A stretch of DNA of 64,000 nt from the NCBI GenBank assembly GCA_002719955.1, contig PBFW01000053.1, positions 48-64,047 on the forward strand, read 5' to 3'. The position numbers and the translations under genes are program-made. The notes under the pieces are model-generated. The model saw only the letters and a program-made list of their open reading frames with translations. It searched no databases and was not told the origin of the DNA. The stretch comes from Deltaproteobacteria bacterium. Lineage in GTDB: Bacteria > Myxococcota_A > UBA9160 > UBA4427. Below are positions 1,917 through 53,918 of this stretch, in pieces. How positions within the stretch are numbered: position 1 is the first letter of the stretch; the number at the start of each line of letters is the position of its first letter.

Positions 1917-2039
1917 CCGGGAATACCCTCCACGCGGGCGTGCTCGCTCGATTGCCGTCGATCGAGCGAGTGCCTGTCCCCGACAGGGTAGCGACTTTCA
2001 CGACGGGGGACGCACATCGATCGGCGCTAGGGTCGGGCG

Positions 2040-2624
2040 ATGGAATTGATCCTGATCCGACATGCCGAGCCGATCGAGGAGGCCCGGAGCGATGGCTCAC
2101 CGGCCGACCCTCCGCTCAGCGATCGCGGTCGTGCCCAGGCCCGGGCGGTCGCGGGATGGCTTTCGTTTCGGGGGATCGATCGGATTCTTTCCAGCCCCGC
2201 ACTTCGCGCTCGACAGACGGCCGAGGAAATGGCGCGTCGGGCGGGTCTCGAAATCAGCATCGACGACCGCTTGCGCGACGCGAATGCGCAGGCCGATCGC
2301 TACATACCGCGCGAGGTGCAAAAGTCGCGTGACCCGGAGGCCTATCGCGCACGCCTCGACGAGTATCGCGGCTCCTCCCGTCTGGCTGGAATCGCGAATC
2401 GCGTCGCCGAGTCTCTCGACGCGTGGACATCGCTTTGTCGGGGTGAGAGGGTGGCGGTCTTCTGCCATGGCTCGGTGATCAACGTTTACGCCGCGCGCGT
2501 ACTCGGGCTCGAAAACCGGGCGTTTTTGGAGCCAGACTATGCGAGCAGCCACCGTTTTTTGGTTTCCGAGATGGGGGTTCGCAGCCTGCAAAGCCTGAAT
2601 GAGACCGCATATTTGCCCAGTTGA
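2040..2624 (+). CDS. Histidine phosphatase (phosphoglycerate mutase-like) family protein
   Basis: LIRHAE, LSDRGRAQA, SSPALRARQTA and VFCHGSVI motifs. Confidence 0.9.
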   Translation: MELILIRHAEPIEEARSDGSPADPPLSDRGRAQARAVAGWLSFRGIDRILSSPALRARQTAEEMARRAGLEISIDDRLRDANAQADRYIPREVQKSRDPEAYRARLDEYRGSSRLAGIANRVAESLDAWTSLCRGERVAVFCHGSVINVYAARVLGLENRAFLEPDYASSHRFLVSEMGVRSLQSLNETAYLPS

Positions 2625-6265: not shown

Positions 6266-6366
6266 GGTCGCACTCCGTCGTTGGGCGGATCCGTCGTCGA
6301 GTCTATCATCCGGACCGATCGCGGGCCTCGGTCGGCCATGTGAGGACGGGTGAGGGGACTCGATCG

Positions 6367-8055
6367 ATGAGTGAGTGGACGCTCCAGAAGAATACGCGGT
6401 TCCCCGGCCTGAAGGGACCCATCGTCGTCTGTGTCATGGATGGAGTCGGCGTAGGACGTCGCGACGGGTCGGATGCAGTCTGGCTCGCTCGCACCCCGAC
6501 GCTCGATCGGCTCGCCGAATCGGGACCGACCGCAGAGCTCGTCGCTCACGGGAGGGCCGTCGGGATGCCTTCCGACAGCGATATGGGCAATAGCGAGGTC
6601 GGGCACAACGTGCTCGGGGCGGGGCGCGTTTTTGATCAGGGCGCGAAGCTCGTCGCTGGGGCGATTGCGGAGGGAACGCTCTTCGAGGGAGCCCAGGCCC
6701 ACGTCTGGCGGGACCTCGTCGAAGGGGTCCGAAATCGTCATTCCACATTCCATTTCCTGGGGCTCCTCTCCGACGGCAACGTTCATGGTCACATCGATCA
6801 TCTCTTTTCGCTGCTGCGTCGTTGTGATCGGGAGGGGATCGAACGCGCACGAATCCATGTTCTGCTCGATGGCCGAGACGTTTCAGAGACGAGCGCCCTC
6901 GACTATGTCGATGCGCTCGAAGCATTGCTCGAAACGATCTCGGAGAAGCCCCGACGCGACTATCGGATCGCTTCCGGCGGAGGCCGGATGACGACGACCA
7001 TGGATCGCTACGGAGCGGATTGGGGGATGGTCGAACGCGGTTGGAAGACGCATGTCAGGGGGGAGGGTCGCGGCTTCGAGAATTGTCGGCGGGCCATCGA
7101 AACGTTTCGAGGAGAGTCGGCTGGGATCGGTGACCAGATGCTGCCCCCATTCGTCGTTATCGAGGGAGAGGGGAAGCCCGTCGGTCCCGTCGTCGACGGT
7201 GATGCGTTCGTCCTCTTCAACTTTCGCGGGGATCGGGCGATCGAGATCAGTCAGGCCTTCGAGTCGGAGCAGCTACCCTATTTCGATCGAGGTTCCCGCC
7301 CCGACGTGCACTTTGCGGGCATGATGGAATACGATGGGGATTTGCATCTGCCCTCCCGTTTTCTGGTCGCCCCGCCGATCATCGATCGCACACTCGGTGA
7401 ATTCCTCTCTCGCGCCGGCCTCCCGCAGCTCGCGATCAGCGAAACCCAGAAATTCGGGCACGTCACGTATTTCTGGAATGGGAACAAGAGCGGCGCCTTC
7501 GACGAAGATCTCGAGACCTACGTCAAGGTCGCTTCCGACGCTCGTCCTTTCGAAGAGCAGCCCGGGATGAGGGCTTCCGAGATCACCGATCGTTTGATCG
7601 AGCAACTGCGGTCCGGTCGTTATCGACTGGCTCGGGTGAACTACGCAAACGGGGATATGGTCGGCCACACGGGGTATCTCGAGGCGACCGTTCAGGCGGT
7701 CGAAGCCGTGGATTCTCAACTCGCGCGACTCCTGCCCGTCATCGAGGATCTGGGTGGCGCGTTGATCGTCACAGCAGATCACGGAAACGCGGACTGCATG
7801 TTCGAAATCGATGAGAGGACCGGTGAGCCGGTGCTGAACGCGAGGGGCGATATCCAGCCCAAGACGAGTCATACACTGAATCCGGTTCCCTTTCATGTAT
7901 TCGTTCCGGGGGCGAAGATTTCGCTGGCAGCGTGTGCAGCGGGAAGTGCTAGGCCCGGCCTCGCCAATGTGGCCAGCAGTGTTCTGTCGTTGATGGGATT
8001 CGACGCGCCAGAGGATTACGAACCGACACTCATCGCTTGTATCGATCGCCCCTGA
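6367..8055 (+). CDS. gpmI: 2,3-bisphosphoglycerate-independent phosphoglycerate mutase
   Basis: VMDGVG, DMGNSEVGH, LLSDGNVH, NFRGDR, ETQKFGHVTYF, NGDMVGHTG, TADHGNAD, SHTLNPVP. Confidence 0.95.
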   Translation: MSEWTLQKNTRFPGLKGPIVVCVMDGVGVGRRDGSDAVWLARTPTLDRLAESGPTAELVAHGRAVGMPSDSDMGNSEVGHNVLGAGRVFDQGAKLVAGAIAEGTLFEGAQAHVWRDLVEGVRNRHSTFHFLGLLSDGNVHGHIDHLFSLLRRCDREGIERARIHVLLDGRDVSETSALDYVDALEALLETISEKPRRDYRIASGGGRMTTTMDRYGADWGMVERGWKTHVRGEGRGFENCRRAIETFRGESAGIGDQMLPPFVVIEGEGKPVGPVVDGDAFVLFNFRGDRAIEISQAFESEQLPYFDRGSRPDVHFAGMMEYDGDLHLPSRFLVAPPIIDRTLGEFLSRAGLPQLAISETQKFGHVTYFWNGNKSGAFDEDLETYVKVASDARPFEEQPGMRASEITDRLIEQLRSGRYRLARVNYANGDMVGHTGYLEATVQAVEAVDSQLARLLPVIEDLGGALIVTADHGNADCMFEIDERTGEPVLNARGDIQPKTSHTLNPVPFHVFVPGAKISLAACAAGSARPGLANVASSVLSLMGFDAPEDYEPTLIACIDRP

Positions 8056-8132
8056 GCGCAGCGGTGATCACGGGTCCCGCAGCGGTTCCGAGCGGGGCGA
8101 TCTCCTCTTCAGATTCGACCTGGGGAGGGCTT

Positions 8133-8609
8133 CTATAAGGTGTCGGTCATCTTGCCCACGAGCCGAGTGAACTCATCCTGCTCCGATTCCGGCAGGACCT
8201 GCTTGATGTGCCCGACCAGCCCCATCAAGCTCTCATGGCAGCGCCGCAGCGCGTCCACGGCGGCGGGGGTGGATTCGAGTACGACCGAGCGACGATCGTC
8301 TGGATTCGGGTGACGGGTGACGAGTCCGCGCGCCTGCAGCCGGTCGACGATCGCGGTCATCGTGCTGCGAGGGAGGTTGAGATCCGCGACGAGACGCTTG
8401 ACGCTGGTTGGCCCGGAGGCCGCCAGCAGCGCCACGAGATCGAGTTCTCTTCCAAATAATCCCGTCGATGATTCGAGATCGACACTTCTCAGTCGCAATC
8501 TCAGACTCATGTGAACCAGGAGTTCGAGGAGCTTGTGGTCTCGATCCGACACGGGCGGGGTAGGCGGCGACGGGCCGGGTTGGGACGAGCCTTGTTCGAG
8601 CGCATTCAT
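8133..8609 (-). CDS. MarR family transcriptional regulator
   Basis: wHTH: LNLPRSTMTAIVDRLQARGLVTRHPNPDDRRSVVL; start uncertain. Confidence 0.9.
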   Translation of the reverse strand: MNALEQGSSQPGPSPPTPPVSDRDHKLLELLVHMSLRLRLRSVDLESSTGLFGRELDLVALLAASGPTSVKRLVADLNLPRSTMTAIVDRLQARGLVTRHPNPDDRRSVVLESTPAAVDALRRCHESLMGLVGHIKQVLPESEQDEFTRLVGKMTDTL

Positions 8610-8664
8610 TGCGGCCCTCCGAACACCCAGATGGGAGGCGGGTTCAGCGTCATGGTGGGTATTA

Positions 8665-8682
8665 CGTTCGAATGAGCGAACG
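8665..8682. promoter_or_regulatory. Inverted repeat, candidate MarR operator
   Basis: CGTTCG-aatgag-CGAACG in the divergent MarR / CoA-transferase intergenic region. Confidence 0.4.
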
Positions 8683-8908
8683 GTTTCATTCCATGACAAA
8701 CCGCAGATTCGGGCCACGAGCGGAGCGCGCGTATCGAGCAGGGGGCAGGCGCAGATGGTGGTGCATTATCTCCCGCGGGGTGGTCGCGCCGGTCTACAGC
8801 GTCTTTCGGCGCACGCGGTTCCGCTTGAGCGCCGGTGGCGAGCGGGGTACGTTGCGCGGCCCGAAAACAACTCGCGGTCATTTAATGGCCCCAGAATAGG
8901 AATCGCCC

Positions 8909-10147
8909 ATGTCGACTTCGCAGCCCGCTCCCCTGGCCGGCGTTCGGATCATCGAGAGTTCCATGCTCGGCCCCGCCGGGATCACGACCCACCTCGCCGA
9001 CCTCGGCGCCGATGTCATCAAGGTCGAACCGCCGCAGGGCGACTACATCCGTGATATGACCTGGCCGATCATCGAGGGTGTCTCCCTGATGCATCTCCAT
9101 CTGAATCGCGGCAAGAAGAGCATCGCTCTCAATCTCAAGAATCCCGAAGCCGTCCAGGTCTACAAAGATCTGGTGGAGACCGCCGACTGTGTCGTCGAAG
9201 CGATGCGACCGGGTTCACTCGCGCGTCGTGGTCTCGGCTTCGATGATCTCAAAGAGATCAATCCGAAGATCGTTTTCTGCAACATCTCGGGTTACGGGAT
9301 GACGGGTCCCTACCAGAATCTCCCGGCGCACGGCATCGCCTTCGATACCTGGGCGGGCATCATCCGGCCGGCCTATGACGAAGAGGGCTTCTGTTATATC
9401 CCCGAACACGCCTCGATCGGCATCCATGCCGGTCCGATCTTCGGCGCGTTCGGGATCCTCGCGGCGATCATTCGCGCGCGCGAGACTGGCGAGGGGGCAT
9501 TCATCGAGGTCGGTCAGTCCGACGCAGCGGCCTATATGGACTGGTATCGCTCCGAATCGTTCATGGCCTATCGCCGCCCCGAAGACGTGGTCACCGGAAA
9601 CAAGGCCGACAACTACGAGCGTCGCGCGGTCGGGACTGCCGGAATGAAGGAGGGTGTTCGCTATCAGATGTACGATGCGAGTGACGGCGTCGTCATGATC
9701 ATGTGCTCCGAGCAGGCGTTCTGGAAGAATTTCTGTGAGGTCGCTGGCCGGACGGATCTCTTCGAGAAATGGCCGGGTTCGAAATACGCGGATCACGCTC
9801 GCAATAACCGTGAACTGCAGGCGGAACTGAAGCAGATCTTCAAGACGAAGACCTGCCAGGAGTGGATCGATCTCGGGAACGAGAAAAATTTTCCGATGGC
9901 CCCGGTCAACACGCCAGAGGACATCGTCGAGGATCCTCAATTCCAGGAACGCTTCGACATTTTTCCCCACGAAAAACACGGTGCAGACATGTTGCCTTTC
10001 CCGGTGCAGTTCGTGAACGAAGAATTGCCTACGCCGACGAAGGCGCCCACGGTCGGGGAGCATCGCGCGCAGGTGCTTGCTGATGTGCTCGGTTACGACG
10101 CGGCGAAGGTCGAAGCACTGAAGGAAAAGGGTGTCTTTGGCGCTTGA
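8909..10147 (+). CDS. CoA-transferase family III (CaiB/BaiF/Mcr-like)
   Basis: PLAGVRII, LADLGADVIKVEPP, NRGKKSIALNLK, ISGYGMTGPY, APTVGEH. Confidence 0.9.
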   Translation: MSTSQPAPLAGVRIIESSMLGPAGITTHLADLGADVIKVEPPQGDYIRDMTWPIIEGVSLMHLHLNRGKKSIALNLKNPEAVQVYKDLVETADCVVEAMRPGSLARRGLGFDDLKEINPKIVFCNISGYGMTGPYQNLPAHGIAFDTWAGIIRPAYDEEGFCYIPEHASIGIHAGPIFGAFGILAAIIRARETGEGAFIEVGQSDAAAYMDWYRSESFMAYRRPEDVVTGNKADNYERRAVGTAGMKEGVRYQMYDASDGVVMIMCSEQAFWKNFCEVAGRTDLFEKWPGSKYADHARNNRELQAELKQIFKTKTCQEWIDLGNEKNFPMAPVNTPEDIVEDPQFQERFDIFPHEKHGADMLPFPVQFVNEELPTPTKAPTVGEHRAQVLADVLGYDAAKVEALKEKGVFGA

Positions 10148-45024: not shown

Positions 45025-45894
45025 ATGAAGTTCTGGCAGTCGATCACCTGGGCCGAGACCGACCAGCTCTGCGAGGTTGCTCTTTTTGCGGACGAGCTCG
45101 GCTTCGGGGGGATCATCGGCGCCGATCACGCGCTCTATCCGAGAACGATGACGCCCAACTATCCCTACTCGGAGTCAGGCTACCCGCCCCAGACCGCCGA
45201 GAGCGAATATCCTGACATGTGGACGAGTACGGCGGCGATGGCTGCGGTGACGACGCGGCTGCGCTTCGTTTGTGGGGTCTACGTGTTGCCGCTTCGTGAT
45301 CCGATCGAGGTCGCGAAGCAGGCGGCGACCCTGTCCATCCTCTCCCAGGGGCGCTTCGTGCTGGGCGTCGGTGTTGGATGGATGAAGGAAGAGTTCGACA
45401 TCTATGGCGTCGACTTTGCCAGCCGAGGCCGGCGGATGGATGAGATGATCGCGGTCTTGCAGGGGCTGTGGAGCGGTGACTATTTCGAGTTCCACGGGGA
45501 GTTCTTCGACTTCGACCCGATCGTGGTGAGCCCGAAGCCGAGCCACCCGATTCCGATCTACTTCGGTGGAACGGCCCCCGTCGCTCTACGCCGAACGGCT
45601 CGAGTCGGGGACGGCTGGATCGGGGCCGGGAACCAGCCAGAGGATGTGCCGGGTGTGCTGGCGGAGATCGCCCGGCTGCGTGTGGAAGCGGGGCGTAGTG
45701 ATCAGCCCTTCGATTCGTTGGTCGGGGTCTATGCGGATCCCGATGTCGATCTCTTTCGCAGACTGGAGGACGAGGGAATGACGTCGGGGATTCATCTGCC
45801 CTTCTGGTTTGCCTTCGACGGTCCGTCGACCCTCGATCAGAAGAAGGCGCTGATGGAACGATTTGCCGAGGATATTCTTCGGCATTTCAACTGA
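45025..45894 (+). CDS. LLM class F420-dependent oxidoreductase (TIGR03619-like)
   Basis: ADHALYP, VYVLPLRDPIEVAKQ, GVGVGWMKEEF, GDGW. Confidence 0.9.
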   Translation: MKFWQSITWAETDQLCEVALFADELGFGGIIGADHALYPRTMTPNYPYSESGYPPQTAESEYPDMWTSTAAMAAVTTRLRFVCGVYVLPLRDPIEVAKQAATLSILSQGRFVLGVGVGWMKEEFDIYGVDFASRGRRMDEMIAVLQGLWSGDYFEFHGEFFDFDPIVVSPKPSHPIPIYFGGTAPVALRRTARVGDGWIGAGNQPEDVPGVLAEIARLRVEAGRSDQPFDSLVGVYADPDVDLFRRLEDEGMTSGIHLPFWFAFDGPSTLDQKKALMERFAEDILRHFN

Positions 45895-46060: not shown

Positions 46061-47551
46061 TCAGTCTGCCGCCGCCACGCTCCTTCCGGCCATTCGGCCA
46101 AAAAAACTGCTTCCGCCAATAGAGAGGCCGCTCGCATAATGGCTACCCGACCGGGTGAGGCCCGCCGACGTGCGGCCCGCGGCGTAGAGACCCTCGACGA
46201 TTTGTCCATCGACTGTCAGCACTTCACCCGTAGGCCTCGTGTCGAGTCCACCCAATGTGAATGCGGCCCACACGCTATTGCCAACGGAGAGGTCGAGTGC
46301 GGCAAAGGGTGGGTGATCAAGCGGCGTGACGTATTTCTTTGCCTTGTGAAAGACGGGATCGACACCCTCTGCGGCGAAGCGGTTATAGGACGCGAATGTG
46401 TGGACGAGTTGTCCTTCGGACATGCCGAGAGATTTTTCCAGATCTTCGATCGTCTCTTCGACCGCGACGATCTTGTAGCCGCCCATTGATTGTCCATAGG
46501 TATCGTCGTCGACGATCAAGAAAGCCGTTCCACCCGCCTTCTTCTTGATCGCGTCGGTCACGCGGCCGTGATAGCAGTCTTCGTTGATGAAACGCTGGCC
46601 ATGTTTGTTGACGACCAACCCCTTGATGTGGCCGACGGGCGGGAAGAAGGGTGTCGTCATGAGTCCCTCGCTCATGTTGATCGCGGCACCGCCGACACCC
46701 ATTCCCATCCGAATTCCGCTGCCGTCACATCCGTCGCTTCCGATCGGGTAATTGCAGTCCGCGAGATCTGGTGCGAATTGCTCGACCATTGGGCGATTCA
46801 TGATGAAGCCGCCCGTCGTGAGGACCACACCTCGTCGCGCACGAATCGCGACGTCTTCGTCCTCGACTCTGGCGATCACACCAACGATGCGCCCCGTATC
46901 GCTTCTGATCAGTGTCTGCACGCGGGACTCGTTCTGGATCGTGCCACCCAGCGCGCCGAAGGTAGTGATCATCTTCTCGATGATATGGCCCCCCGCACTG
47001 CCTTCCTTCTTGGGTTTGTGGCCGCGGGGAACGGGGGTCGCTTCTTCGGAGAATGGATAGGCCTGCTCGTTGCCGGAGTAGATCAGGCAATCGTCTGTGG
47101 GGGGGAAGATGACTTTCTCATCGTAGTAGGTGTCCTTGAACTCGATGCCGAGGCTCTCGAAGAATGCGAAATGTTCGAGGCTATTCTCGCAATAGAGCCG
47201 GACCTTTTCGGGATCGGCGGTCGGGCCTGCTGCCCCCTTCATGTGGGCGTGCATGTTCTCCAGCGTGTCCTCGAAGCCCGCAGCCTTCTGGACGCGCGTG
47301 CCCCCACCGAAATAGATCGTTCCTTCGGACAGGGCCGTCGCGCCACCGCCGCGCGTCGCGCGCTCGAGGATCAGCGTCGAGGCGCCTGCGCGCACCGCCT
47401 CGATGGCGGCTGCACCGCCCGCAACGCCGAATCCGACGACGACCACGTCGAACTCTCCCCACCAGGAGTCGATCGAAGCGAGCGAGCGAGGCTCGGAGGG
47501 GAGCGGGTCGTGATTGGAGGAAGTGGGGCTCTCGGGCATGGGGTCGTCCAT
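46061..47551 (-). CDS. FAD-dependent oxidoreductase, 3-ketosteroid dehydrogenase-like
   Basis: VVVVGFGVAG, GGATALSEG..YFGGGT, GQRFINEDCYHGR, FTLGGL, GLYAAGR, YASGLS. Confidence 0.85.
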   Translation of the reverse strand: MDDPMPESPTSSNHDPLPSEPRSLASIDSWWGEFDVVVVGFGVAGGAAAIEAVRAGASTLILERATRGGGATALSEGTIYFGGGTRVQKAAGFEDTLENMHAHMKGAAGPTADPEKVRLYCENSLEHFAFFESLGIEFKDTYYDEKVIFPPTDDCLIYSGNEQAYPFSEEATPVPRGHKPKKEGSAGGHIIEKMITTFGALGGTIQNESRVQTLIRSDTGRIVGVIARVEDEDVAIRARRGVVLTTGGFIMNRPMVEQFAPDLADCNYPIGSDGCDGSGIRMGMGVGGAAINMSEGLMTTPFFPPVGHIKGLVVNKHGQRFINEDCYHGRVTDAIKKKAGGTAFLIVDDDTYGQSMGGYKIVAVEETIEDLEKSLGMSEGQLVHTFASYNRFAAEGVDPVFHKAKKYVTPLDHPPFAALDLSVGNSVWAAFTLGGLDTRPTGEVLTVDGQIVEGLYAAGRTSAGLTRSGSHYASGLSIGGSSFFGRMAGRSVAAAD

Positions 47552-47703: not shown

Positions 47704-47722
47704 AATGGTATAAAGTACCATT
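47704..47722. promoter_or_regulatory. Perfect AT-rich palindrome, candidate operator
   Basis: AATGGTA-taaag-TACCATT in the divergent intergenic region. Confidence 0.6.
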
Positions 47723-47826
47723 TACAAATGGACGATTCGATCGACGATGCCTCGATTGGGCGGGCGGCCCCGATTGGCCGTGCCGCGGAGCCGGCCTCAT
47801 CCCCGCGAAAGGAGTTTCGGATTTCG

Positions 47827-48627
47827 ATGCGCCCCCGCCCCAAGCCTGCTCGATTCCAGTCCCTCGGTGTGGCACTCGTCGTGGGGTGGGTGTGCGCCTC
47901 GTTGGTTCGAGCGGAGGAGCGGCAAGAAATCCCGCCGAGTTTCTGGGACTCGGTCTTCTGGACCTATACCGCCGGCTTCGATTTCAGCCGGGGCGATTAC
48001 GGTCTGGCTCGGAATTCGACCCTCTTCTACATGCCGCTCGGCGTGATCGCCGACTACGATCGTTTTCGAGTGCAGGCCGTCGTCCCCTTCATCGTGAGCG
48101 ATGGGCCGACGTCGGTTCTATTGGATATGGCTCCCATGCCTCTCGAGTCGGAAACGAACTCGGGTGTCGGAGAAATGTTGGTCTCGGCCAGTTATGTCCT
48201 GGATCCCTTTGCCTCGGGGCTTCCGCTGGTCGAATTGGGAGTGCAGCTGACGGTGCCCACGCGATCGAAGAACGAACTCGGTACCGGTGGCTGGGGATTC
48301 GCGACACGCATCGACTGCTTCCGGGAATGGGGGCCGGTCACCCCCTTCACGTCGTTTGGGCGAAAATTTTATACGAGTGATTCTCTCGACGACCGCTTCT
48401 TTGCGTCGGTGGGGGCGAGCGTCGAGCTCACGGATCTCGTGGCGGCGGGTGTCTCCTACGACTGGCTCGAGGAGACTTCCGGTGCGACACCCGATGCGCA
48501 CGAGATCGTCCCCTTTCTTGTTCTCGCAGGGTCGAAGCGGTGGTCGTTTGGACCCTATGGCGTCATTGGTCTTTCGGACGCGTCGCCAGATTATGGCGTC
48601 GGTCTGAGCGTGAGCTTTGCACCATGA
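47827..48627 (+). CDS. Putative outer-membrane beta-barrel protein (MetA-pathway/transporter-like)
   Basis: Signal peptide ending in VRA; amphipathic strands TAGFDFSRGDYG, SGVGE, PT..ELGTG, PDYGVGLSVSF. Confidence 0.65.
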   Translation: MRPRPKPARFQSLGVALVVGWVCASLVRAEERQEIPPSFWDSVFWTYTAGFDFSRGDYGLARNSTLFYMPLGVIADYDRFRVQAVVPFIVSDGPTSVLLDMAPMPLESETNSGVGEMLVSASYVLDPFASGLPLVELGVQLTVPTRSKNELGTGGWGFATRIDCFREWGPVTPFTSFGRKFYTSDSLDDRFFASVGASVELTDLVAAGVSYDWLEETSGATPDAHEIVPFLVLAGSKRWSFGPYGVIGLSDASPDYGVGLSVSFAP

Positions 48628-48676
48628 TGAGATGGAAGAGTCGGCACTTGTTGCTCGCGCTGAAAGGAAGGGTCCG

Positions 48677-49603
48677 ATGAGCGGATCCGAGTCCCCGCCT
48701 TCGGTGGATTCCGCCGCTGTGCTCGTCGCGATGCTGCGGCGCATGCTCCGGCCGCTGGTGCGTTTCCTGGTCTCGCGGCAGGTTCAATATCCCCTCGTCT
48801 CGCGACTGCTCAAATCGCTCTATGTCGAAGTGGCGACTTCGGACTTCCCCCTCGAAGACAAGCGGCTCACGGTGAGTCGCTTGAGCCTCTTGACCGGCAT
48901 CCATCGGCGGGAGGTCAAGCGGATTCAGGAGCAGGCTGCTCCGGGGGAGGCGCCGACCCCTCCGGCGATCACCCTCGGCGCGCAGATCGTGGCGCGTTGG
49001 ACCGGGGAGGCGCCGTGGATCGATGACGAAGGGAGGCCCAGGCCACTTCGTCGGCAGAGCGACGAGGGCGATATCCCTTCTTTTCAGCGACTGGTGAACT
49101 CCGTCAGTGTCGATATCCATCCGCGTTCCGTACTTGACGAGTGGCTTCGGCTCGGGATTGCTTCGATCGACGAGGACGGTGCGGTCGCCCTGAAATCAGA
49201 AGCATTCGTGCCTTCGCGGGGCTTCGAGGAGAAGGCGCATTATGTCGGGCGCAATCTACGTGACCATCTGGCCGCCGCTGCGGGCAACCTCGATTCCGAC
49301 GAATCCCCGTTTCTGGAAAGAAGTGTCCACTACGGCTCCCTTCCGTCAGCGGCAGTCGAGGAATTGTCGGCGCTGGCGCGCGAAGCGGGTCAGGAGGTTC
49401 TCGTTCGGATCAACGATCGCGCGCGGGAATTGAAACGAGGGGCGGCGGAGCGAGGGGAAAGCGAGGGGCTGGATCATCGGCGCATCACCTTCGGTGTCTA
49501 CGAATTCGATGCGCCAACGAACGAGGGGGCTGGGGAAGTCTCTGGATCGAGTGCAGAGAGGGCCCTGAACGAGGTGCCGGAAGGAGGGGGTGATGCAGAT
49601 TAG
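48677..49603 (+). CDS. DUF6502 family protein (HTH-like)
   Basis: LRPLVRFL..LKSLYVEVA..TVSRLSLLTGIHRREV..W..PRPL..SF..LV..D.HPRSVLDEW..NLRDHL..FLERSV; AAGGAAGG RBS. Confidence 0.85.
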   Translation: MSGSESPPSVDSAAVLVAMLRRMLRPLVRFLVSRQVQYPLVSRLLKSLYVEVATSDFPLEDKRLTVSRLSLLTGIHRREVKRIQEQAAPGEAPTPPAITLGAQIVARWTGEAPWIDDEGRPRPLRRQSDEGDIPSFQRLVNSVSVDIHPRSVLDEWLRLGIASIDEDGAVALKSEAFVPSRGFEEKAHYVGRNLRDHLAAAAGNLDSDESPFLERSVHYGSLPSAAVEELSALAREAGQEVLVRINDRARELKRGAAERGESEGLDHRRITFGVYEFDAPTNEGAGEVSGSSAERALNEVPEGGGDAD

Positions 49604-50855
49604 TCGATTCGCCACCGGATCCTCTCGTCGGGCGGTTCCGTCTCGGTGCATCCCCGTGATGCTCTTGATCGTCATGATGCTCTTGCCTGGGGAACGGGTT
49701 CTTGCGGAATGTTCCGAGGAGGGCTGGGCGACCGCGGAGTCGCTCGCGTCACCCCGCACAAACGATCTGGTGGCGGCCGGAGCCGATGGAATCGGGGGAT
49801 CGGGATTCGGCTCGGATCCGGGCGACGACGACGGGATCGGGGGATCGGGATACATACCGGCGGATGAAAGCCCGGACGACGGCATCGGCGGCTCCGGTCT
49901 CTTCGGAACGATCACGGGCTTCGGAAGCGTCTGCGTGAACGGTGGGCGCGTGCGCTACGACGATTCGGTTGCCGTTTCGATCGATGCTGTATCGGCGGCC
50001 GTGGGGGATCTCGCGGTCGGTCAGGTCATTCGCATCAACCTGGAAACGCGCGAGGACGGCGTCTACGCCCGAGAGATCGATGTTCAGCACGAGGTGCTCG
50101 GCCCGATCACCGCGGCGGGAGGCGACGGCATCGATGTAATGGGTCAGCGCGTCTCGCTCGAGTATCTCGCCGATCACGCTCGGAGCGAGATCGAGGTGGG
50201 CGCGCGGGTCGCCGTGAGCGGGCTTCGTCGATCCGACGGAACGGTCGTCGCCTCGAGAATCGTCCCCGCCCCGAGCACCACGCCGGACCTGACGCGCGGC
50301 GTGCCGATGTCGGTCGATGAATCTTCGTTTCGGATCGGTGGTACGCTCATCGCTCCGCTCGCGTTCGACCCCTCACAAGGGTCGGGGTTGTCGGGCCGAT
50401 CGGCTCCCCACCAAGGTGGACGTGAGATCGTGCAGGGATCCTGGAATGTGGAGTTGGGTCGACTGGAGGCGAGTCGACGTGGAGCCTCGCCGGTTGCGTC
50501 GGCCCATGCTCGGCAGGTCGACCTCGAGGGTTATGTCGAACGAAACGAGGCGGGCGTGTTGGCCGTGGGGGGCGTTGCTTTCTCGGTCGGTGAGGGAGCG
50601 GCGACGATCCGCAGCGGCGAGCGGGTCCGCGTGCGCGGTGTTCGCGAAGCGGCGGGCGAGACGCTCCGGTTGAGGCGTGTGATGCGCGTCGCGGAGCGCC
50701 CCATGTTCCGCGCCCTGGATCCGGGTGTACGCCCCCCCCAGGTGCTCCGTCCCGATCTCCGGGGGCAGCGACCGCATCCCCCCCGCCCTCATCGCATCCG
50801 AAGGCCGCCTCCGCGCAACGATCGCCTGCCTCCGAGGCGCCCGCCGCCGTCGTAA
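49590..50855 (+). CDS. DUF5666 domain-containing exported protein
   Basis: Signal peptide; GIGGSG repeats then GTITGFGSVCVNG; L.VGQV, GPIT, VMGQRV, VAVSGLRRSDGTVVASRI; Pro/Arg-rich tail. Confidence 0.85.
   Translation: MMQISRFATGSSRRAVPSRCIPVMLLIVMMLLPGERVLAECSEEGWATAESLASPRTNDLVAAGADGIGGSGFGSDPGDDDGIGGSGYIPADESPDDGIGGSGLFGTITGFGSVCVNGGRVRYDDSVAVSIDAVSAAVGDLAVGQVIRINLETREDGVYAREIDVQHEVLGPITAAGGDGIDVMGQRVSLEYLADHARSEIEVGARVAVSGLRRSDGTVVASRIVPAPSTTPDLTRGVPMSVDESSFRIGGTLIAPLAFDPSQGSGLSGRSAPHQGGREIVQGSWNVELGRLEASRRGASPVASAHARQVDLEGYVERNEAGVLAVGGVAFSVGEGAATIRSGERVRVRGVREAAGETLRLRRVMRVAERPMFRALDPGVRPPQVLRPDLRGQRPHPPRPHRIRRPPPRNDRLPPRRPPPS
49785..49898 (+). repeat. Three DGIGGSG-coding repeats
   Basis: Units at 49785-49805, 49830-49850 and 49878-49898. 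Confidence 0.85.
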
Positions 50856-51009
50856 TCCCGGCGCGGAGCGCAACAGCGCTTCTTCACGCATCGGGGCGCT
50901 CAAGGGCCCGCTGACCCCCGGTCTTCGCCGGTCCTTTCGCATTCGGGGTACTGTCCCGCCACGCTCGCGCGCTGCCTGCGCGCGGCCTCAATTGCCAGGA
51001 GGTCTCATC

Positions 51010-51861
51010 ATGAAATTCGGGCTCATATTCGCCAACGCCGGCCCCTTTGGTCGGGCGGAGGGATTGACCCATCTCGCGCAGACTGCGGAATCCGTCGGTC
51101 TCGAATCGCTCTGGACTGTCGAACACGTCGTCGTGCCGACGGGTTATGCCTCGCAATATCCTTATAGCCAGGACGGCAGGATGCCGGGTTCGGAAGAGAG
51201 CCCGATTCCGGACCCCTACGTCTGGCTGGCTTATGCTGCGGCGGTCACGAAGACGATCAAGCTCGCGACTGGCATCATCATCCTCCCCCAACGACACCCC
51301 TTCTATGTCGCCAAGGAGGCGGCGACCCTCGATCAGCTCTCCGGGGGCCGCCATATCCTGGGCGTCGGGATCGGTTGGCTCGAAGAAGAATTCAAGGCGA
51401 TGAAGGTGCCCTTCGACAAGCGCGCCTCGATCACGGACGAGTCGATCCGGGCGCTGCACGACCTTTGGAGCGAGGGTCCTTCCTCGCATAAGGGTGATTA
51501 TTACGAGTGGACGGCGGTCGAGTCGAATCCCAAACCCGTCGGGGGCAGGATTCCGATCGTGATCGGCGGACACACGAAAGGGGCTGCGCGCCGGGCGGCG
51601 CGTCTGGGGGACGGGTTCTTCCCGGGACAGGCCGACAAGCTCGAGGAATGTATCGCCGAGATCAAGGCGGAATGTGCTCGCATCGGGCGGGATTCGAGCG
51701 AGGTCGAGATCAGCGGTGGCAGCCGGCCCACACCGGATGAAGTGAAGCGTCTCGAGGACCTGGGTGTCAGCCGATTCGTGATCGGTCCCCCCGGTTTCAC
51801 GAAGGATGACGTCGAATCGGGTCTCGAGAAGCTGGGCGACGAGCTCTTCTCGAAATTCTAG
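51010..51861 (+). CDS. LLM class F420-dependent oxidoreductase (TIGR03619-like)
   Basis: SLWTVEHVVVP, YPYS..G.MPG, ILPQRHP..VAKE, GIGWLEEEF; AGGAGG RBS. Confidence 0.9.
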   Translation: MKFGLIFANAGPFGRAEGLTHLAQTAESVGLESLWTVEHVVVPTGYASQYPYSQDGRMPGSEESPIPDPYVWLAYAAAVTKTIKLATGIIILPQRHPFYVAKEAATLDQLSGGRHILGVGIGWLEEEFKAMKVPFDKRASITDESIRALHDLWSEGPSSHKGDYYEWTAVESNPKPVGGRIPIVIGGHTKGAARRAARLGDGFFPGQADKLEECIAEIKAECARIGRDSSEVEISGGSRPTPDEVKRLEDLGVSRFVIGPPGFTKDDVESGLEKLGDELFSKF

Positions 51862-51962: not shown

Positions 51963-53918
51963 ATGCCCGTTCTCGACGCTCACGAACTTCGCAGATTCGT
52001 CGCCGGCCGAACGCTCTTCGAAGACGTCCAGTTGACGATTCGGCGGAGCGAGCGGGTCGGTCTGGTCGGCAAGAATGGATCCGGGAAGAGCACGCTGGCA
52101 CGCGTGCTCGCGGGGCTCGAGGAGTCCGATGGTGGTCGGGTCTCGTATCGACGGGAAGCGACGATCGCGTATCTCCCCCAGGAACCGGATTTCGAGCCCG
52201 GGCGGAGCGTGCGCGAGGTCGTGCTCGAGAGTCTGACCGAATGGAGCGCGACTCGTCGCCGCTACGACGAACTCACGGAGGCGCTTTCCACCGCGGATGA
52301 TCCGAGCCAACAGTCTCGGCTCGCGGCGGAGCAGGCAGAGATCGGGGAGGCCCTCGAGCGTCATGGGGGTTGGGAGCGCGAACACGAAGCCGAAGCCACG
52401 GTCGGACATCTCGGCATCGTCGATTCGAGCCGTCTGGTCGACACGCTGAGCGGTGGTGAGGCGCGTCGGGTGGCGCTGGCTCGCCTCCTGGTCGCCGAGC
52501 CGTCGCTCGCGATTCTCGATGAGCCGACGAACCATCTCGACATCGCGACGATCGAGTGGTTAGAAGAATACCTGCGCGATCGCTTCAAGGGCGCGATCCT
52601 TTTGATCAGCCACGATCGCAGGGTGCTCGACGCCGTGACGACCCGCACCCTCGAGATCCACGACGGCCGTATCGACAGCTATGACGGCGGTTATGCACGC
52701 TATCTGCTCGGCAAGGCGGAGCGCGAAGCGCACGCCGACCGCACCTGGCGGAATACCCAGAATTTTCTGCGCCGCGAAGTCGAATGGTTGCGGCGTGCAC
52801 CGAAGGCGCGTGGGACGAAGCAGAAAGCGAGGATCTCGCGCGCAGAAGCGGCCCTCGAAGAAAGGGCGCCCGAGGTCGACCGCCAAGCGGATCTGCGGAT
52901 GCGATCCGAGCGGCTCGGCAAGACCATCCTCGACATCAAGGATCTGTCGATCGAGCGCGATGGCAAACGTCTGATCGAAGGCCTGGAGCTCGCACTTCGC
53001 GCCGGGGATCGAATCGGAATCGTGGGTCCGAACGGGTCGGGCAAGACGAGCCTTCTGCTCGCGATCCTCGAAGAACTCGAGCCGATGGGGGGCCAGATCA
53101 TCAGGGGCGTGAATACCCAGATCGGTTATTTGGATCAGGCCCGCTCGGAACTCGAGCCGAGCGCAAGCCTTCGTGAGGCGGCCGTCGGCGACGCAACTGA
53201 AATTGCGATCGGTGATGAGAGGCTCTCGGTCGGGAGCTATCTCGAGCGTTTTCTCTTCGACCGCCGGCAGCAGCGACTACGGGTCGGTGAGTTGTCCGGG
53301 GGGGAGCGGGCGCGGGTCTGTCTCGCGCGGCTGCTCGCAAAGCGATGCAATCTGATCTTACTGGACGAGCCGACGAATGACCTCGACGTGGCCACACTCG
53401 GTGCGCTGGAGGCGATGCTGCTCGATTTTGGTGGGAGCATCATCCTCGTGAGCCACGATCGTTGGCTCCTCGATCGTGTGGCGACCGGGATTCTGGCCTT
53501 CGAGGGAGAGGGGCGGGTCGAATACTTCGTTGGGGATTATTCGGATTTTCGGGAGCGAGCTGACCGGAAAGGATCCGGAGCCCCTGCGAGCGCGGCGAAG
53601 AAGTCGAATCCGGCGAGCGTTGCGTCGGTCACCTCGTTGGCCCCGGGGTCGGCCGAGTCCCGCGCTCGGCCGAAAAAGCTCAGCCACAAGGAACGTCGAG
53701 AACTCGACGGTCTGCTCGAATCGGTCGAGGCGGCGGAGGGAATCACAGCGGCCCTCCAGGCCCGCCTCGCGGATCCGCAGACCTATCGACTGCCTCACGA
53801 AGAAATCGCTGAACTCCAGAGTGAACTCGCGATCGCCGAGGCCGAGGCGCTTCGATTGACCGAACGCTGGGAAGATCTCGAGGCTCGAAACGCGGCGTTC
53901 GAAGCGAGCCAGCGTTGA
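51963..53918 (+). CDS. uup: ABC-F family ATPase (Uup-like)
   Basis: Two NBDs (GKNGSGKS/LSGGE/DEPTNHLD; GPNGSGKT/LSGGE/DEPTNDLD) and a C-terminal KLSHKE coiled coil. Confidence 0.88.
   Translation: MPVLDAHELRRFVAGRTLFEDVQLTIRRSERVGLVGKNGSGKSTLARVLAGLEESDGGRVSYRREATIAYLPQEPDFEPGRSVREVVLESLTEWSATRRRYDELTEALSTADDPSQQSRLAAEQAEIGEALERHGGWEREHEAEATVGHLGIVDSSRLVDTLSGGEARRVALARLLVAEPSLAILDEPTNHLDIATIEWLEEYLRDRFKGAILLISHDRRVLDAVTTRTLEIHDGRIDSYDGGYARYLLGKAEREAHADRTWRNTQNFLRREVEWLRRAPKARGTKQKARISRAEAALEERAPEVDRQADLRMRSERLGKTILDIKDLSIERDGKRLIEGLELALRAGDRIGIVGPNGSGKTSLLLAILEELEPMGGQIIRGVNTQIGYLDQARSELEPSASLREAAVGDATEIAIGDERLSVGSYLERFLFDRRQQRLRVGELSGGERARVCLARLLAKRCNLILLDEPTNDLDVATLGALEAMLLDFGGSIILVSHDRWLLDRVATGILAFEGEGRVEYFVGDYSDFRERADRKGSGAPASAAKKSNPASVASVTSLAPGSAESRARPKKLSHKERRELDGLLESVEAAEGITAALQARLADPQTYRLPHEEIAELQSELAIAEAEALRLTERWEDLEARNAAFEASQR

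Follow-up and report, generated by a model that had tools for sequence, protein, structure and literature searches.

DUF6502, a candidate family of autoregulators linked to a 17-bp palindrome and a small set of exported envelope proteins

Introduction

Proteins of the DUF6502 family form a large group that spans marine Myxococcota to rhizobial megaplasmids, with 4990 cluster representatives (50% identity) at E≤1e-3, and they carry no assigned function. In the 64-kb stretch of DNA analysed here (the window), a DUF6502 gene lies at positions 47827-50855 together with the genes of a beta-barrel protein and a DUF5666 protein, all on the + strand. The locus raises the question of whether the three genes belong together, and what such a system might do. 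A first-pass annotation had proposed a self-regulated envelope system with a novel DNA-binding regulator, and had stated that DUF6502 and DUF5666 lack an assigned function. The latter is borne out by a search of the accessible literature, in which DUF6502 and PF20112 were not named, DUF5666 appeared only in tables, and no published function was found. The former gains support from a palindrome before the DUF6502 gene, the predicted fold and gene linkage. On balance, DUF6502 appears to be a new autoregulator family in charge of a small set of envelope genes.

The 17-bp operator, and a small local regulon of exported envelope proteins only, represent the first concrete and testable handle on DUF6502. 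Operator and module are both carried by cultured, tractable bacteria, including Azospirillum lipoferum 4B, Rhizobium johnstonii 3841 and Methylocystis iwaonis. If true, the proposal would define a new bacterial transcription factor family, and would join DUF6502, DUF5666 and a FapF/COG4313-like barrel in one system.

Gene organization of the locus

The open reading frame coordinates agree with the earlier description of three co-oriented, tightly spaced genes, in which a 49-nt gap between barrel and DUF6502 is followed by an overlap (Table 1). The barrel frame spans 47728-48627; its likely start is the ATG at 47827, with AAGGAG 12 nt upstream, and the product bears a typical signal peptide at its N-terminus. 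One database gene call (P0188) uses the alternative start at 47728, giving 299 aa. The DUF6502 protein has the length of database entry P0001, and its gene overlaps that of DUF5666 by 14 or 11 nt, depending on the DUF5666 start chosen. The strings quoted earlier as HTH-like (TVSRLSLLTGIHRREVKRI) and winged-helix-like (SFQRLVNSVSVDIHPRSVLDEWLRLGIASIDEDGAVAL) are both found in the translations, as are the three DGIGGSG repeats and the Pro/Arg tail of DUF5666. The label "trans-envelope", taken as a physical span, is unsupported, the regulator being the only cytoplasmic part.

Table 1. Genes and predicted features of the locus, in window positions
Feature	Position	Strand	Remarks
Candidate operator, perfect 17-bp palindrome ATGGTATAAAGTACCAT	47705..47721	.	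~105 nt 5' of the barrel ATG
Signal-peptide outer-membrane beta-barrel gene	47827..48627	+	FapF/COG4313-like, 266 aa
DUF6502 gene	ATG 48677..49603	+	308 aa, without signal peptide; predicted DNA-binding regulator
Predicted DUF6502 helix-turn-helix	48872..48931	+	residues 66-85, SRLSLLTGIHRREVKRI; helices 66-73 and 77-85 in the model
Predicted DUF6502 winged-helix-like domain	48962..49207	+	residues 96-177, AlphaFold model
Exported DUF5666 gene	GTG 49590 or ATG 49593 to 50855	+	421 or 420 aa; P0121
Three (D)GIGGSG repeats of DUF5666	49785..49898	+	residues 66-103, predicted disordered
Four predicted tandem OB-fold beta-barrels of DUF5666	49893..50687	+	~residues 102-366, model strand pattern
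Basic Pro/Arg-rich tail of DUF5666	50703..50852	+	predicted disordered; low pLDDT past residue 370

Linkage of the three families

The genes of the module are linked well beyond the window, and with these families found together in more than 100 independent loci, chance is far from explaining the three-gene arrangement. The genome loci number 44, comprising the window, its paralogue, 37 Myxococcota loci and 5 genome_contigs loci; in 41 of them the gene directly 3' of DUF6502 is a co-oriented DUF5666 gene, as it is in 57 of the 61 metagenome loci having at least 700 nt downstream. The recurrence of the two as neighbours, which the first-pass annotation mentions, is in fact near-obligate. The same order, with an overlap of 4 nt, is seen on annotated plasmids from Azospirillum lipoferum 4B, Methylocystis iwaonis and Rhizobium johnstonii 3841.

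Linkage of the barrel, on which the first-pass proposal also depended, is likewise present in other genomes. A barrel gene lies within 7 kb of the pair in 19 of the 44 genome loci (25 are without one) and, among metagenome loci whose flanks are long enough, in 30 of 36. The metagenome placements are downstream co-directional (21), downstream convergent (10), upstream co-directional (7) and upstream divergent (7), and five different arrangements relative to DUF6502-DUF5666 occur overall, which argues for selection on proximity and not for shared descent of one layout. The genome of the window (G000, 5.85 Mb) holds only two barrel copies, and its paralogous DUF6502-DUF5666 pair (C67) has no barrel adjoining. 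In a second DUF6502 subfamily, operator and barrel are both missing from 12 of 12 loci, and a shared upstream motif was looked for in that subfamily and not found. Because of this subfamily, the regulator model may not hold across the whole Pfam family.

Among the gene clusters near the loci, no other recurrent regulator family stands beside the pair (one flanking TetR cluster occurs at 4 loci only), and no recurrent neighbours were seen other than DUF6502, DUF5666, c5, the DRPER proteins and SGNH-TPR. Every conserved protein of the module other than DUF6502 is exported. In Methylocystis, a non-homologous 227-aa outer-membrane protein occupies the regulon position of the barrel. The flanks of many loci abound in genes of lipid and xenobiotic catabolism (acyl-CoA ligase, enoyl-CoA hydratase, P450, luciferase-like monooxygenases, a FAD oxidoreductase), and some loci also carry an SGNH (GDSL-lipase-like) protein.

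A palindromic candidate operator

A 17-bp palindrome with the consensus GTGGGAAwwwTTCCCAC stands upstream of DUF6502 genes, conserved in sequence and position and specific genome-wide. The pattern GTGGGAAA/TTTCCCAC occurs in 60 of 87 non-identical 300-nt DUF6502 upstream regions, against a maximum of 11 in 20 shuffles, and the motif half that was left out of seeding reproduces the other one in mirror image (G.89, T.85, G.98, G.71, A.85). Sites of at least 16 bits number 184 in 1.10 Mb of loci, compared with 10 in the 5.85-Mb genome of the window, where five of the ten lie at C67 and C71. Nearly all of the 184 (178) are located no more than 1100 nt upstream of a module gene, namely DUF6502 (145), c5 (26) or the barrel (7). 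With a strict pattern and at most one mismatch, five near-complete genomes (4.6-7.0 Mb) yield 11 sites, 10 of them within 3 kb of DUF6502, while a reversed-pattern control yields 0. The palindrome is found, too, in front of barrel genes and further secreted-protein genes at the same loci, and it extends to the cultured Alphaproteobacteria Azospirillum, Rhizobium and Methylocystis. Azospirillum lipoferum carries GTGGGAAAATTTCCCAC ~110 nt upstream of DUF6502; Methylocystis has three sites upstream of DUF6502 and two before the outer-membrane protein gene. No site of at least 16 bits was found within 400 nt in 27 of 111 loci of the window's DUF6502 subfamily.

The palindrome suspected near position 47704 of the window exists as ATGGTATAAAGTACCAT. 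Its geometry, TGGnA-N5-TnCCA, is that of the family motif, of which it is a diverged copy. It is the sole match in the window with at most two mismatches, at least one such match being found in 21 of 100 window shuffles, and its weight-matrix score is only 13.4 bits, at about rank 39 genome-wide. Orthologous loci in which the barrel comes first (L007/L093, L091, L089, L066) carry variants at the equivalent place, and the operon of the second barrel in the same genome (C16) has ATGGGATAAAGTTCCAT, two mismatches from ATGGTATAAAGTACCAT.

Co-occurrence and predicted fold together indicate that DUF6502 is probably the protein that binds this operator. Whether it represses is an even call; repression is suggested by two promoters of the window's genome in which a -10-like TATAAT or TACAAA directly adjoins the operator. 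Of 70 proximal sites across loci, just 36 have a -10-like TAnnnT after them.

Predicted structures of the three proteins

DUF6502 of the window matches Pfam PF20112 over nearly the full profile (E 1e-32, 113.5 bits, positions 4-262 of 268; curated cut-off 27 bits). Its AlphaFold model has an overall pLDDT of 76, reaching 85-95 in residues 40-90 and 100-170, and places a helix-turn-helix before a winged-helix-like domain, the latter with predicted helices 96-110, 136-143 and 149-159 and strands 162-164 and 170-172. In VIA-align, residues 37-90 resemble the HTH domains of TetR and sigma region 4 (Z 6-7, rmsd 1.7-3.2) and residues 93-183 resemble winged helices (Rv2827c Z 7.1; IclR-family and MukF Z 6-6.7), all at Z below 8, which is below the tool's "distinctive" level and can be scored by common helical arrangements. 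The best Foldseek E-value is 0.05. A Pfam sequence search with DUF6502 matched no HTH family and no Pfam family besides DUF6502 itself, and the sequences of solved chains gave no match. The invariant residues of alignment A1 are T65, S67, R68, L72, G74 and R77 in the predicted HTH, and D146, R150, D154 and W156 in the predicted winged helix. A DNA-binding fold, whose absence would have counted against the earlier proposal, is thus predicted at moderate confidence, from the HTH and winged-helix matches at Z 6-7 and, with greater weight, the conserved palindrome before the gene.

The DUF5666 protein scores 46.9 bits against PF18914 (E 3.5e-12; curated cut-off 27 bits), in two stretches. From N- to C-terminus it consists of a signal peptide, an acidic Gly-rich loop, four predicted OB-fold domains and the Pro/Arg tail, so that the several small beta domains noted earlier become four barrels in the AlphaFold model (pTM 0.74; pLDDT 78.5 overall and above 90 over most of residues 100-370). 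Foldseek matches it to tandem cold-shock and S1 proteins (Unr CSD789, E 2.6e-4; ribosomal protein bS1, E 3e-4). VIA-align gives PilY2 (Z 8.0), the SilB C-terminal domain (Z 7.0), YgiW and SilF (both Z 6.1), with many OB proteins at Z 6-7.5. The (D)GIGGSG region sits between Cys41 and Cys115, with pLDDT below 50 at residues 60-98. Members of the family hold 0-6 repeats, most commonly 3, and the repeat glycines are nearly invariant in alignment A2. Both cysteines are present in 44 of the 54 members where the repeat motif could be found, and the acidic GIGG(S/T)G loop is probably disulfide-closed. RPxRP-type tails occur throughout A2, and (D/E)RPER repeats like the tail are also found in co-regulated secreted proteins. 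DUF5666 may act as a binder, as the first-pass annotation had supposed.

The window barrel reaches 20.6 bits (E 5e-4) against Pfam PF13557 (Phenol_MetA_deg), below the cut-off of 22 bits, whereas 25 of 52 relatives match at E≤0.01 and the L054 barrel attains 35.6 bits. Judged by sequence, it is a divergent relative of Phenol_MetA_deg/COG4313 rather than a certified member. The barrel family profile matches only one solved protein, FapF (chains 5o65/5o67/5o68; E 1.2e-7, 34.4 bits), in three collinear stretches: profile positions 70-142, 145-212 and 225-255 correspond to FapF 90-165, 189-258 and 297-327. The PT of the family aligns with the PTG of FapF in the first PTG-motif region, and Pput2725 is unmatched by the profile at E≤10. 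The mature barrel has ~237 residues and begins ~20 residues before a conserved TGFDFSRGDYG block, which leaves no room for the periplasmic coiled-coil trimerisation domain that FapF has at its N-terminus. The barrel may be an exporter rather than an importer.

Relation to known systems

The barrel shares with FapF, of the Pseudomonas functional-amyloid system, the profile match and a place beside genes of secreted repeat proteins. It differs in lacking the N-terminal coiled-coil and the linker, in having no Fap partners recurrent nearby, and in standing under the DUF6502 candidate operator. The COG4313 channels (Pput2725, TcpY, SphA) belong to the Pfam family matched by those 25 relatives and are of similar mature size, but the window barrel falls short of the Pfam cut-off and has no catabolic operon attached. 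According to PMC4493636, SphA is controlled by an adjacent dedicated regulator, SphR, an arrangement like the one proposed for the window barrel.

Single DUF5666 domains superpose on YgiW, SilF and the SilB C-terminal domain, which are exported small beta-barrels from the periplasmic OB-fold groups of BOF (YgiW/YdeI) and CusF/SilF proteins. DUF5666 departs from them in its four domains in tandem, its Gly-rich loop and its Pro/Arg tail, and no sequence relationship to periplasmic OB-fold proteins was found. In the BOF family, YdeI acts together with the porins OmpD and OmpF. The copper site of CusF is built from Met and His, in which DUF5666 is poor, so a Met/His copper site is not suggested.

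Regulators of the TetR and IclR types autoregulate through palindromic operators, and the local fold matches of DUF6502 are to the TetR HTH and the IclR winged helix. DUF6502, however, would have two DNA-binding-type domains per chain and a different C-terminal helical domain, and it matches neither family in Pfam. Over the full length, its fold matches one protein alone: HetR, the heterocyst regulator of cyanobacteria, which PatS RGSGR peptides inhibit (Foldseek E 0.05, probability 0.80; VIA-align Z 6.0 over 215 residues; hood domain Z 5.8, rmsd 2.8, 76 residues). Palindromic DNA binding, putative for DUF6502, and an encoded Gly-rich peptide motif are common to both systems. The full-length superposition is nonetheless poor (TM ~0.3, rmsd 10.8), the sequences show no similarity, and the GIGG(S/T)G repeats lie within an exported 420-aa protein, not a small peptide.

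Proposed mechanism and regulon

We propose that DUF6502 would be a cytoplasmic transcription factor, with an HTH followed by a winged helix, probably binding the 17-bp palindrome as a dimer. The operator stands singly before the DUF6502 gene, its centre at a median of 82 nt upstream of the family-model-aligned part, and the DUF5666 gene is translationally coupled to that of DUF6502. Nearby genes, all for exported proteins, have the operator before them in tandem pairs 28-35 bp apart. These putative members are the FapF/COG4313-like outer-membrane barrel of a 12-strand type, the ~165-aa secreted beta protein c5, the secreted proteins with (D/E)RPER repeats and, at certain loci, an SGNH-hydrolase/TPR protein with a membrane anchor. 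The window probably represents the compact form, in which one diverged operator at 47705-47721 precedes barrel, DUF6502 and DUF5666 as one operon. DUF5666 would be a Sec-exported chain of four OB folds, acting most likely at or with the co-regulated barrel; that the two cooperate physically is conceivable, at slightly below even chances.

A feedback circuit can also be imagined, by analogy with the Gly-rich PatS peptides that act on the HetR hood domain. Here the (D/E)GIGG(S/T)G loop of DUF5666, shown or released at the outer membrane with the barrel, would itself, or through a captured ligand, signal to DUF6502. This is highly speculative and very improbable, although if true it would amount to a widespread, undescribed envelope-to-gene signalling device.

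Alternative explanations

For the activity in the envelope, a tentative place goes to something other than the functions named here; BOF/YdeI-like modulation of outer-membrane proteins, with envelope protection, is somewhat unlikely, export or display of disordered segments through a FapF-like pore equally so, and uptake of hydrophobic compounds unlikely. In display, secreted proteins of the regulon would have their disordered parts passed or anchored by the barrel, so as to lie on the cell surface; these parts are, in DUF5666, the GIGG(S/T)G loop together with the Pro/Arg tail, and, besides, the (D/E)RPER repeat proteins. This doubtful reading draws on the profile match to the FapF transporter domain with its first PTG-motif region, and on the regulon, whose other members are all secreted, several with long low-complexity regions. 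FapF exports unfolded Fap subunits, as PMC5557850 describes, but the ~237 mature residues without a coiled-coil compare with a crystallised FapF fragment of K83-F406 in the same source. No FapD-like protease or FapA-like partner recurs among the gene clusters near the loci, and the absence of a barrel in 25 of 44 genome loci, with its replacement in Methylocystis, argues against a specific secretion-pore role. Alternatively, the barrel could be a COG4313-type channel for a hydrophobic compound, DUF5666 its periplasmic carrier and DUF6502 a compound-sensing inducer. Such channels (TcpY, SphA) are implicated in the uptake of hydrophobic molecules (PMC4493636). About half of the barrel family (25 of 52) matches Phenol_MetA_deg, and the flanking catabolism genes and SGNH proteins would suit such a role. 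Uptake of this kind is nevertheless improbable: no catabolic gene is preceded by the operator or conserved beside the module, the regulon has no inner-membrane transporter, the barrel profile matches FapF and not Pput2725, and the DUF6502-DUF5666 core is found without a barrel in many loci. OB folds are not known to serve as lipid carriers.

The autoregulator proposal itself has a rival, in which another regulator encoded elsewhere binds the palindrome, and DUF6502 is no transcription factor but could, for instance, assist DUF5666 as a cytoplasmic chaperone or targeting factor. The lack of a Pfam HTH match and the middling fold matches leave some room for it, and translational coupling to an exported protein would fit a dedicated chaperone too. 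However, the operator travels with the DUF6502 gene through Myxococcota and Alphaproteobacteria, and since in five genomes it is confined essentially to within 3 kb of DUF6502, the module itself is expected to encode the protein that binds it. DUF6502 alone among the proteins conserved there is not exported, and its invariant residues cluster in the predicted HTH and winged helix, so a regulator from elsewhere seems quite improbable. That the barrel adjoins the pair in the window by chance, without a functional tie, is barely credible. The barrel-free paralogous pair (C67) and the 25 genome loci with no barrel inside 7 kb speak for coincidence, but a gene with two copies in 5.85 Mb sits beside the pair, variously arranged, in 30 of 36 metagenome loci that have long enough flanks, and the same operator stands on barrel operons. 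Linkage and shared operator contradict a chance neighbour.

Gene Trio and Its Linkage

The main gain of this analysis is a candidate operator, the regulon defined by it, and cultured hosts in which both are testable. A transcription factor that controls its own gene together with a local regulon is a known type; here the regulator family and the envelope parts are uncharacterised. Our literature search, with supplementary tables outside its scope, found no paper on DUF6502 (PF20112), nothing functional on DUF5666 (PF18914), which occurs only as table entries in three papers, and no functional study for the rhizobial and Azospirillum accessions. The opinion of the first-pass annotation that no function has been published agrees with this search, supplementary material aside.

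The trio of genes read from the raw sequence is confirmed; the open reading frames are present, and every motif quoted for them is found in the translations (Table). The most likely barrel start is preceded by AAGGAG at a distance of 12 nt, and a ribosome-binding site would not fit ahead of the start used in the longer database gene call (P0188, 299 aa). The barrel gene is separated from the DUF6502 gene by 49 nt, and the DUF6502 and DUF5666 genes overlap by 14 or 11 nt. Against the Pfam family Phenol_MetA_deg the barrel scores 20.6 bits, below the 22-bit cut-off, and none of the three proteins was matched in the NCBIfam search. Among the genes flanking the module, the FAD_binding_2 oxidoreductase gene is transcribed divergently from the barrel, and one gene looks, from its translation, like that of an ABC-F ATPase. 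These flanking genes are shared only with the closest relatives, loci L006 and L007.

The genome of the window (G000) is a 5.85-Mb Myxococcota metagenome-assembled genome, and the sequencing runs containing the window DNA are marine and seawater metagenomes, with no RNA run listed. PF20112 was found in 28 of 301 Myxococcota genomes; within the window's own family it is in 15 of 18, and it is absent from all 14 control genomes. The genome sample consisted of 44 loci, namely 37 matches outside G000 (with 7 kb on each side), two from G000, and five genome_contigs loci found by a single-protein query. In 41 of these loci DUF6502 is followed by a co-oriented DUF5666 gene; two of the other three are truncated by contig ends, and in L066 none was detected. 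Of the 80 loci in the metagenome set, 61 could be assessed, and 57 of these have DUF5666 downstream. The linkage of the barrel proposed earlier is upheld, as the barrel family is within 7 kb in 19 of 44 genome loci and is present in 30 of the 36 metagenome loci whose downstream flank reaches 2.6 kb or more (45 among all 80), counts which are not fully independent because the two sets overlap in part (L008 is L090, and L007 is close to L093). All 19 genome cases belong to the window's subfamily (19/32) and none to a second DUF6502 subfamily (0/12). The barrel is variously arranged in the metagenome set, being downstream and co-directional in 21 loci, downstream and convergent in 10, upstream and co-directional in 7, and upstream and divergent in 7. 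Since G000 holds only two barrel copies, chance adjacency is negligible.

Further proteins accompany the module. A membrane-anchored SGNH/GDSL hydrolase with TPR repeats (c7, about 640 aa), always adjoining the barrel, occurs in 7/44 and 5/80 loci, and a secreted protein of about 165 aa (c5) in 7 genome-set and 5 of the 80 metagenome loci. Between operator and barrel sit genes whose secreted products carry C-terminal (D/E)RPER repeats. The search of G000 for c7 gave no clear SGNH-TPR homologue, but TPR-level matches and one weak N-terminal match, while c5 found only unnamed clusters and weak beta-sandwich leads in the Protein Atlas.

Table. Positions of module genes, operators and related features; window coordinates unless a contig or locus is named
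Feature	Location	Strand	Remarks
Three open reading frames	47728-50855	+	translation
Palindrome ATGGTATAAAGTACCAT	47705-47721		perfect; TGGnA-N5-TnCCA geometry as in family operator
Barrel	ATG 47827 (most likely start); ORF from 47728 (start in P0188)	+	266 aa, classic signal peptide
DUF6502	48677-49603	+	308 aa; Pfam E 1e-32
DUF5666	49590 or 49593 to 50855	+	Pfam E 3.5e-12
Flanking genes: two luciferase-like monooxygenases, FAD_binding_2 oxidoreductase, putative ABC-F ATPase	45025-45894, 46064-47551, 50725-51861, 51963-53918	+, -, +, +	
Second G000 barrel, DRPER-repeat gene and site	C16 (L087): 7734-8591, 8684-9406, site ~9422-9438	-, - (genes)	barrel 42% identical
Second DUF6502-DUF5666 pair and c5	C67 (L005): 6161-7045, 5008-6171, 4347-4823	-, -, +	
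Two tandem operator matches	C71 (L169): 127698-127749		21.0 and 26.0 bits
GTGGGATTCGAACCCAC-type palindromes	C7:336909, C47:25731, C17:54380		13.3 with operator matrix
Broken barrel frame	L006: 4995-5948		one in-frame stop
Broken DUF6502 and DUF5666 genes	L060 (G168): 6662-9031		internal TGA; split gene
Operator	L170 (G198): 1501-1517		perfect
Type IV pilin-like gene	L170 (G198): 1554-2210		N-terminus GFTLIELMIVVAIIG
Two tandem operators, then gene of a 227-aa "outer membrane beta-barrel protein"	L183: 7004-7046 and 7261-7944		Methylocystis iwaonis plasmid

A Conserved Candidate Operator Upstream of DUF6502

We counted 8-mers in 87 non-identical regions of 300 nt that precede DUF6502, taken from loci without a module gene directly upstream. 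The pair GTGGGAAA/TTTCCCAC occurs in 60 of these regions, against a maximum of 11 over 20 shuffles. Alignment of the sites gives a 17-bp palindrome, GTGGGAA-w-w-w-TTCCCAC, whose unseeded half mirrors the seeded half, and the proximal site is centred, at the median, 82 nt before the stretch of the gene aligned to the DUF6502 model. With a symmetrised weight matrix at a threshold of at least 16 bits, 184 sites are found in 1.10 Mb of loci, which were not de-replicated, versus 10 in the entire 5.85 Mb of G000; five of these 10 are at contig C67, upstream of the paralogous DUF6502 and c5, and at contig C71. Of the 184 sites, 178 precede a module gene by at most 1100 nt, namely DUF6502 (145), c5 (26) or the barrel (7). 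In the window's subfamily, 84 of 111 loci have a site no more than 400 nt from DUF6502. Tandem operator pairs with a spacing of 28-35 bp stand before c5 and before the operons of DRPER, barrel and SGNH genes.

A strict pattern with at most one mismatch gives 11 sites in five near-complete genomes, and the reversed-pattern control gives 0. Ten have a DUF6502 gene no farther than 3 kb away; the remaining one, the sole perfect operator in genome G198, is 13 kb from the DUF6502 gene and immediately precedes a type IV pilin-like gene. A type IV pilin link, prompted by this gene together with a fold match of DUF5666 to the pilus-biogenesis protein PilY2, was dropped, as pilin-type N-termini are near 2 of 124 loci. 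Co-variation of the recognition helix with the operator was likewise rejected; GIHRREVKRI accompanies the variant operator and G[IV]HRKDVKRL the canonical one, a pairing which tracks clades, with L069 as an exception. The motif TAnnnT is within 45 nt after the proximal operator in 36 of 70 cases and is not informative as a promoter element.

The range of the operator extends beyond Myxococcota. On a plasmid of Azospirillum lipoferum 4B, the annotated DUF6502 gene is preceded, at about 110 nt, by a perfect GTGGGAAAATTTCCCAC, and on pRL12 of Rhizobium johnstonii 3841, ATGGGAAATTTTCCCAT is located after the DUF5666 gene. The plasmid of Methylocystis iwaonis carries three sites upstream of DUF6502, and two more, in tandem, precede the gene of an outer-membrane protein that is non-homologous to the window barrel. 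The regulon seems to recruit outer-membrane proteins from different families.

The Window Site and Other Sites in the Same Genome

The palindrome of the window scores 13.4 bits with the operator matrix, about rank 39 in G000, a score that by itself would not convince. Palindromes of the GTGGGATTCGAACCCAC type, which look like tRNA T-arm sequences and are probably false positives, score about the same and show that values near 13 lack specificity. Elsewhere among the loci, the exact window palindrome occurs only in L006. Variants occupy the matching place in barrel-first orthologous loci, 188-261 nt before the aligned barrel start, including TGGTATGAGGTTCCA in L007/L093, TGGTATAGGGTGCCA in L091, and related forms in L089 and L066; about 0.014 matches per 1.1 kb would be expected by chance, as estimated from base composition. 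At the second barrel of G000 (contig C16), the preceding gene encodes a secreted protein with about 20 PERPER repeats at its C-terminus, and before this gene lies the palindrome ATGGGATAAAGTTCCAT, with two mismatches to the window site. TTATAAT follows the C16 palindrome, and TTACAAA is found at the corresponding place in the window. The window site lies in the sole intergenic space before the three-gene operon. Because the orthologue variants, the C16 palindrome and this position support it, the window site is read as a diverged operator, tied to the family operator through shared geometry and variants. The window-type operator is possibly specific to the window's paralogue, although this is a guess.

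The second DUF6502-DUF5666 pair of G000 (C67) has no adjoining barrel, and its DUF6502 gene is preceded by a canonical operator, GTGGGAAAAAATACCAC. A further two operators, in tandem, lie there upstream of the convergent c5 gene, which encodes a 159-aa secreted protein with no Pfam family. The two best-placed tandem operator matches in G000 (C71) are far from every DUF6502 gene, between the gene of a secreted DUF3604 protein (-) and a gene for a 469-aa protein without a Pfam family (+). These two flanking genes may be additional regulon members.

DUF6502 as a Candidate Autoregulator

The DUF6502 family has 4990 representatives at E of at most 1e-3, and among the best 150 of these matches almost all are 200-400 aa long, mostly 260-320. 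No sequence link to other families was found in solved chains, the Protein Atlas or Pfam; the profile reaches a best E of 0.34 against solved structures, and in the Protein Atlas it matched DUF6502 clusters alone. With the predicted model (pLDDT 76), Foldseek returned nothing at E of at most 0.001, with HetR as the best match (E 0.05). In a wide structural aligner, residues 37-90 resemble the HTH domains of TetR and sigma region 4, and residues 93-183 the winged helices of Rv2827c, IclR and MukF, at Z 6-7.1, where the distinctive level of the aligner is Z 8. Residues 185-280 resemble the hood of HetR at Z 5.8, also below that level. The model suggests a local likeness to the DNA-binding domains of TetR and IclR and a loose likeness to HetR, in each case without sequence membership. 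The invariant residues of the family are located in the predicted HTH and winged helix. The regulator proposed in the first-pass annotation does look DNA-binding from these predicted folds, and a candidate operator is now in hand.

The protein that binds the operator should be encoded by the module, because the operator is conserved across phyla, precedes DUF6502 and is almost confined to the module within genomes. DUF6502 is the sole conserved cytoplasmic member; for this reason, and for its suitable predicted folds, it is read as the autoregulator. We consider it probable that DUF6502 controls its own gene along with a small, local set of envelope genes. The module of the window would be one compact operon that runs from the operator through the barrel and DUF6502 to DUF5666.

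Envelope Proteins and Their Possible Roles

The model of DUF5666 (pLDDT 78.5, pTM 0.74) predicts a signal peptide, a disordered acidic loop with three GIGGSG repeats, four OB-fold barrels, and a disordered Pro/Arg tail. Its fold matches tandem cold-shock and S1 proteins (E about 3e-4), and further PilY2 (Z 8.0, the best), RPA, the C-terminal domain of SilB, YgiW, SilF and CcmE; the profile against solved structures gave a best E of 1.3. Its domains are OB folds that are not related in sequence to the BOF or CusF proteins. Relatives carry 0-6 GxGG(S/T)G repeats. Among 54 members with a locatable motif, the cysteines flanking the loop are both present in 44, the N-terminal only in 7 (a criterion which can also pick up signal-peptide cysteines), the second only in 1, and neither in 2. 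Counted in this way, the co-variation of the cysteines is weaker than it looks in the alignment; the pattern fits a loop that would be exported and closed by a disulfide.

Against solved proteins, the barrel family profile matched only FapF (E 1.2e-7), in three collinear stretches, and a PT of the family aligns with the first PTG motif of FapF. Phenol_MetA_deg is matched by 25 of 52 barrel relatives. FapF, a plugged barrel of 12 strands, exports amyloid subunits in unfolded form (PMC5557850), and the COG4313 importer Pput2725 is its closest solved relative (PMC5557850; PMC4493636). Judged by its sequence, the window barrel is related to FapF and the COG4313 channels but divergent from both. 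It is a certified member of neither, since it falls below the Pfam cut-off and is too short for the coiled-coil domain of FapF.

Several roles may be considered for these envelope parts. Export or surface anchoring through the barrel is suggested by its likeness to FapF and by the many disordered secreted partners. However, the core pair is often without a barrel nearby, and in Methylocystis the non-homologous 227-aa protein takes the regulon slot; we hold this role to be a tentative possibility. These two observations point instead to a looser partnership, in which a periplasmic OB-fold protein would work with outer-membrane proteins in a BOF-like manner. BOF-family proteins partner with porins in a similar manner. 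We entertain this partnership as an equally tentative possibility. Uptake of hydrophobic compounds, by analogy with COG4313, is a slightly less likely possibility; the operator-linked genes include no catabolic or inner-membrane transport genes.

Interrupted Copies and a Second Subfamily

In the closest relative, L006 (DUF6502 81% identical), the barrel frame is broken by a stop, and in L060 both genes of the core pair are interrupted. Such breaks may reflect gene decay or, alternatively, errors of assembly. In the second DUF6502 subfamily (L040-L051), no barrel was found within 7 kb, no operator was recognisable, no site lay within 400 nt of DUF6502 in any of the 12 loci, and no upstream motif rose above shuffles in 10 regions. 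Its members score 220-287 bits on the Pfam model, much above the window's subfamily. The downstream DUF5666 proteins have six domains, and in L040 and L044 the DUF6502 gene is flanked by two such proteins.
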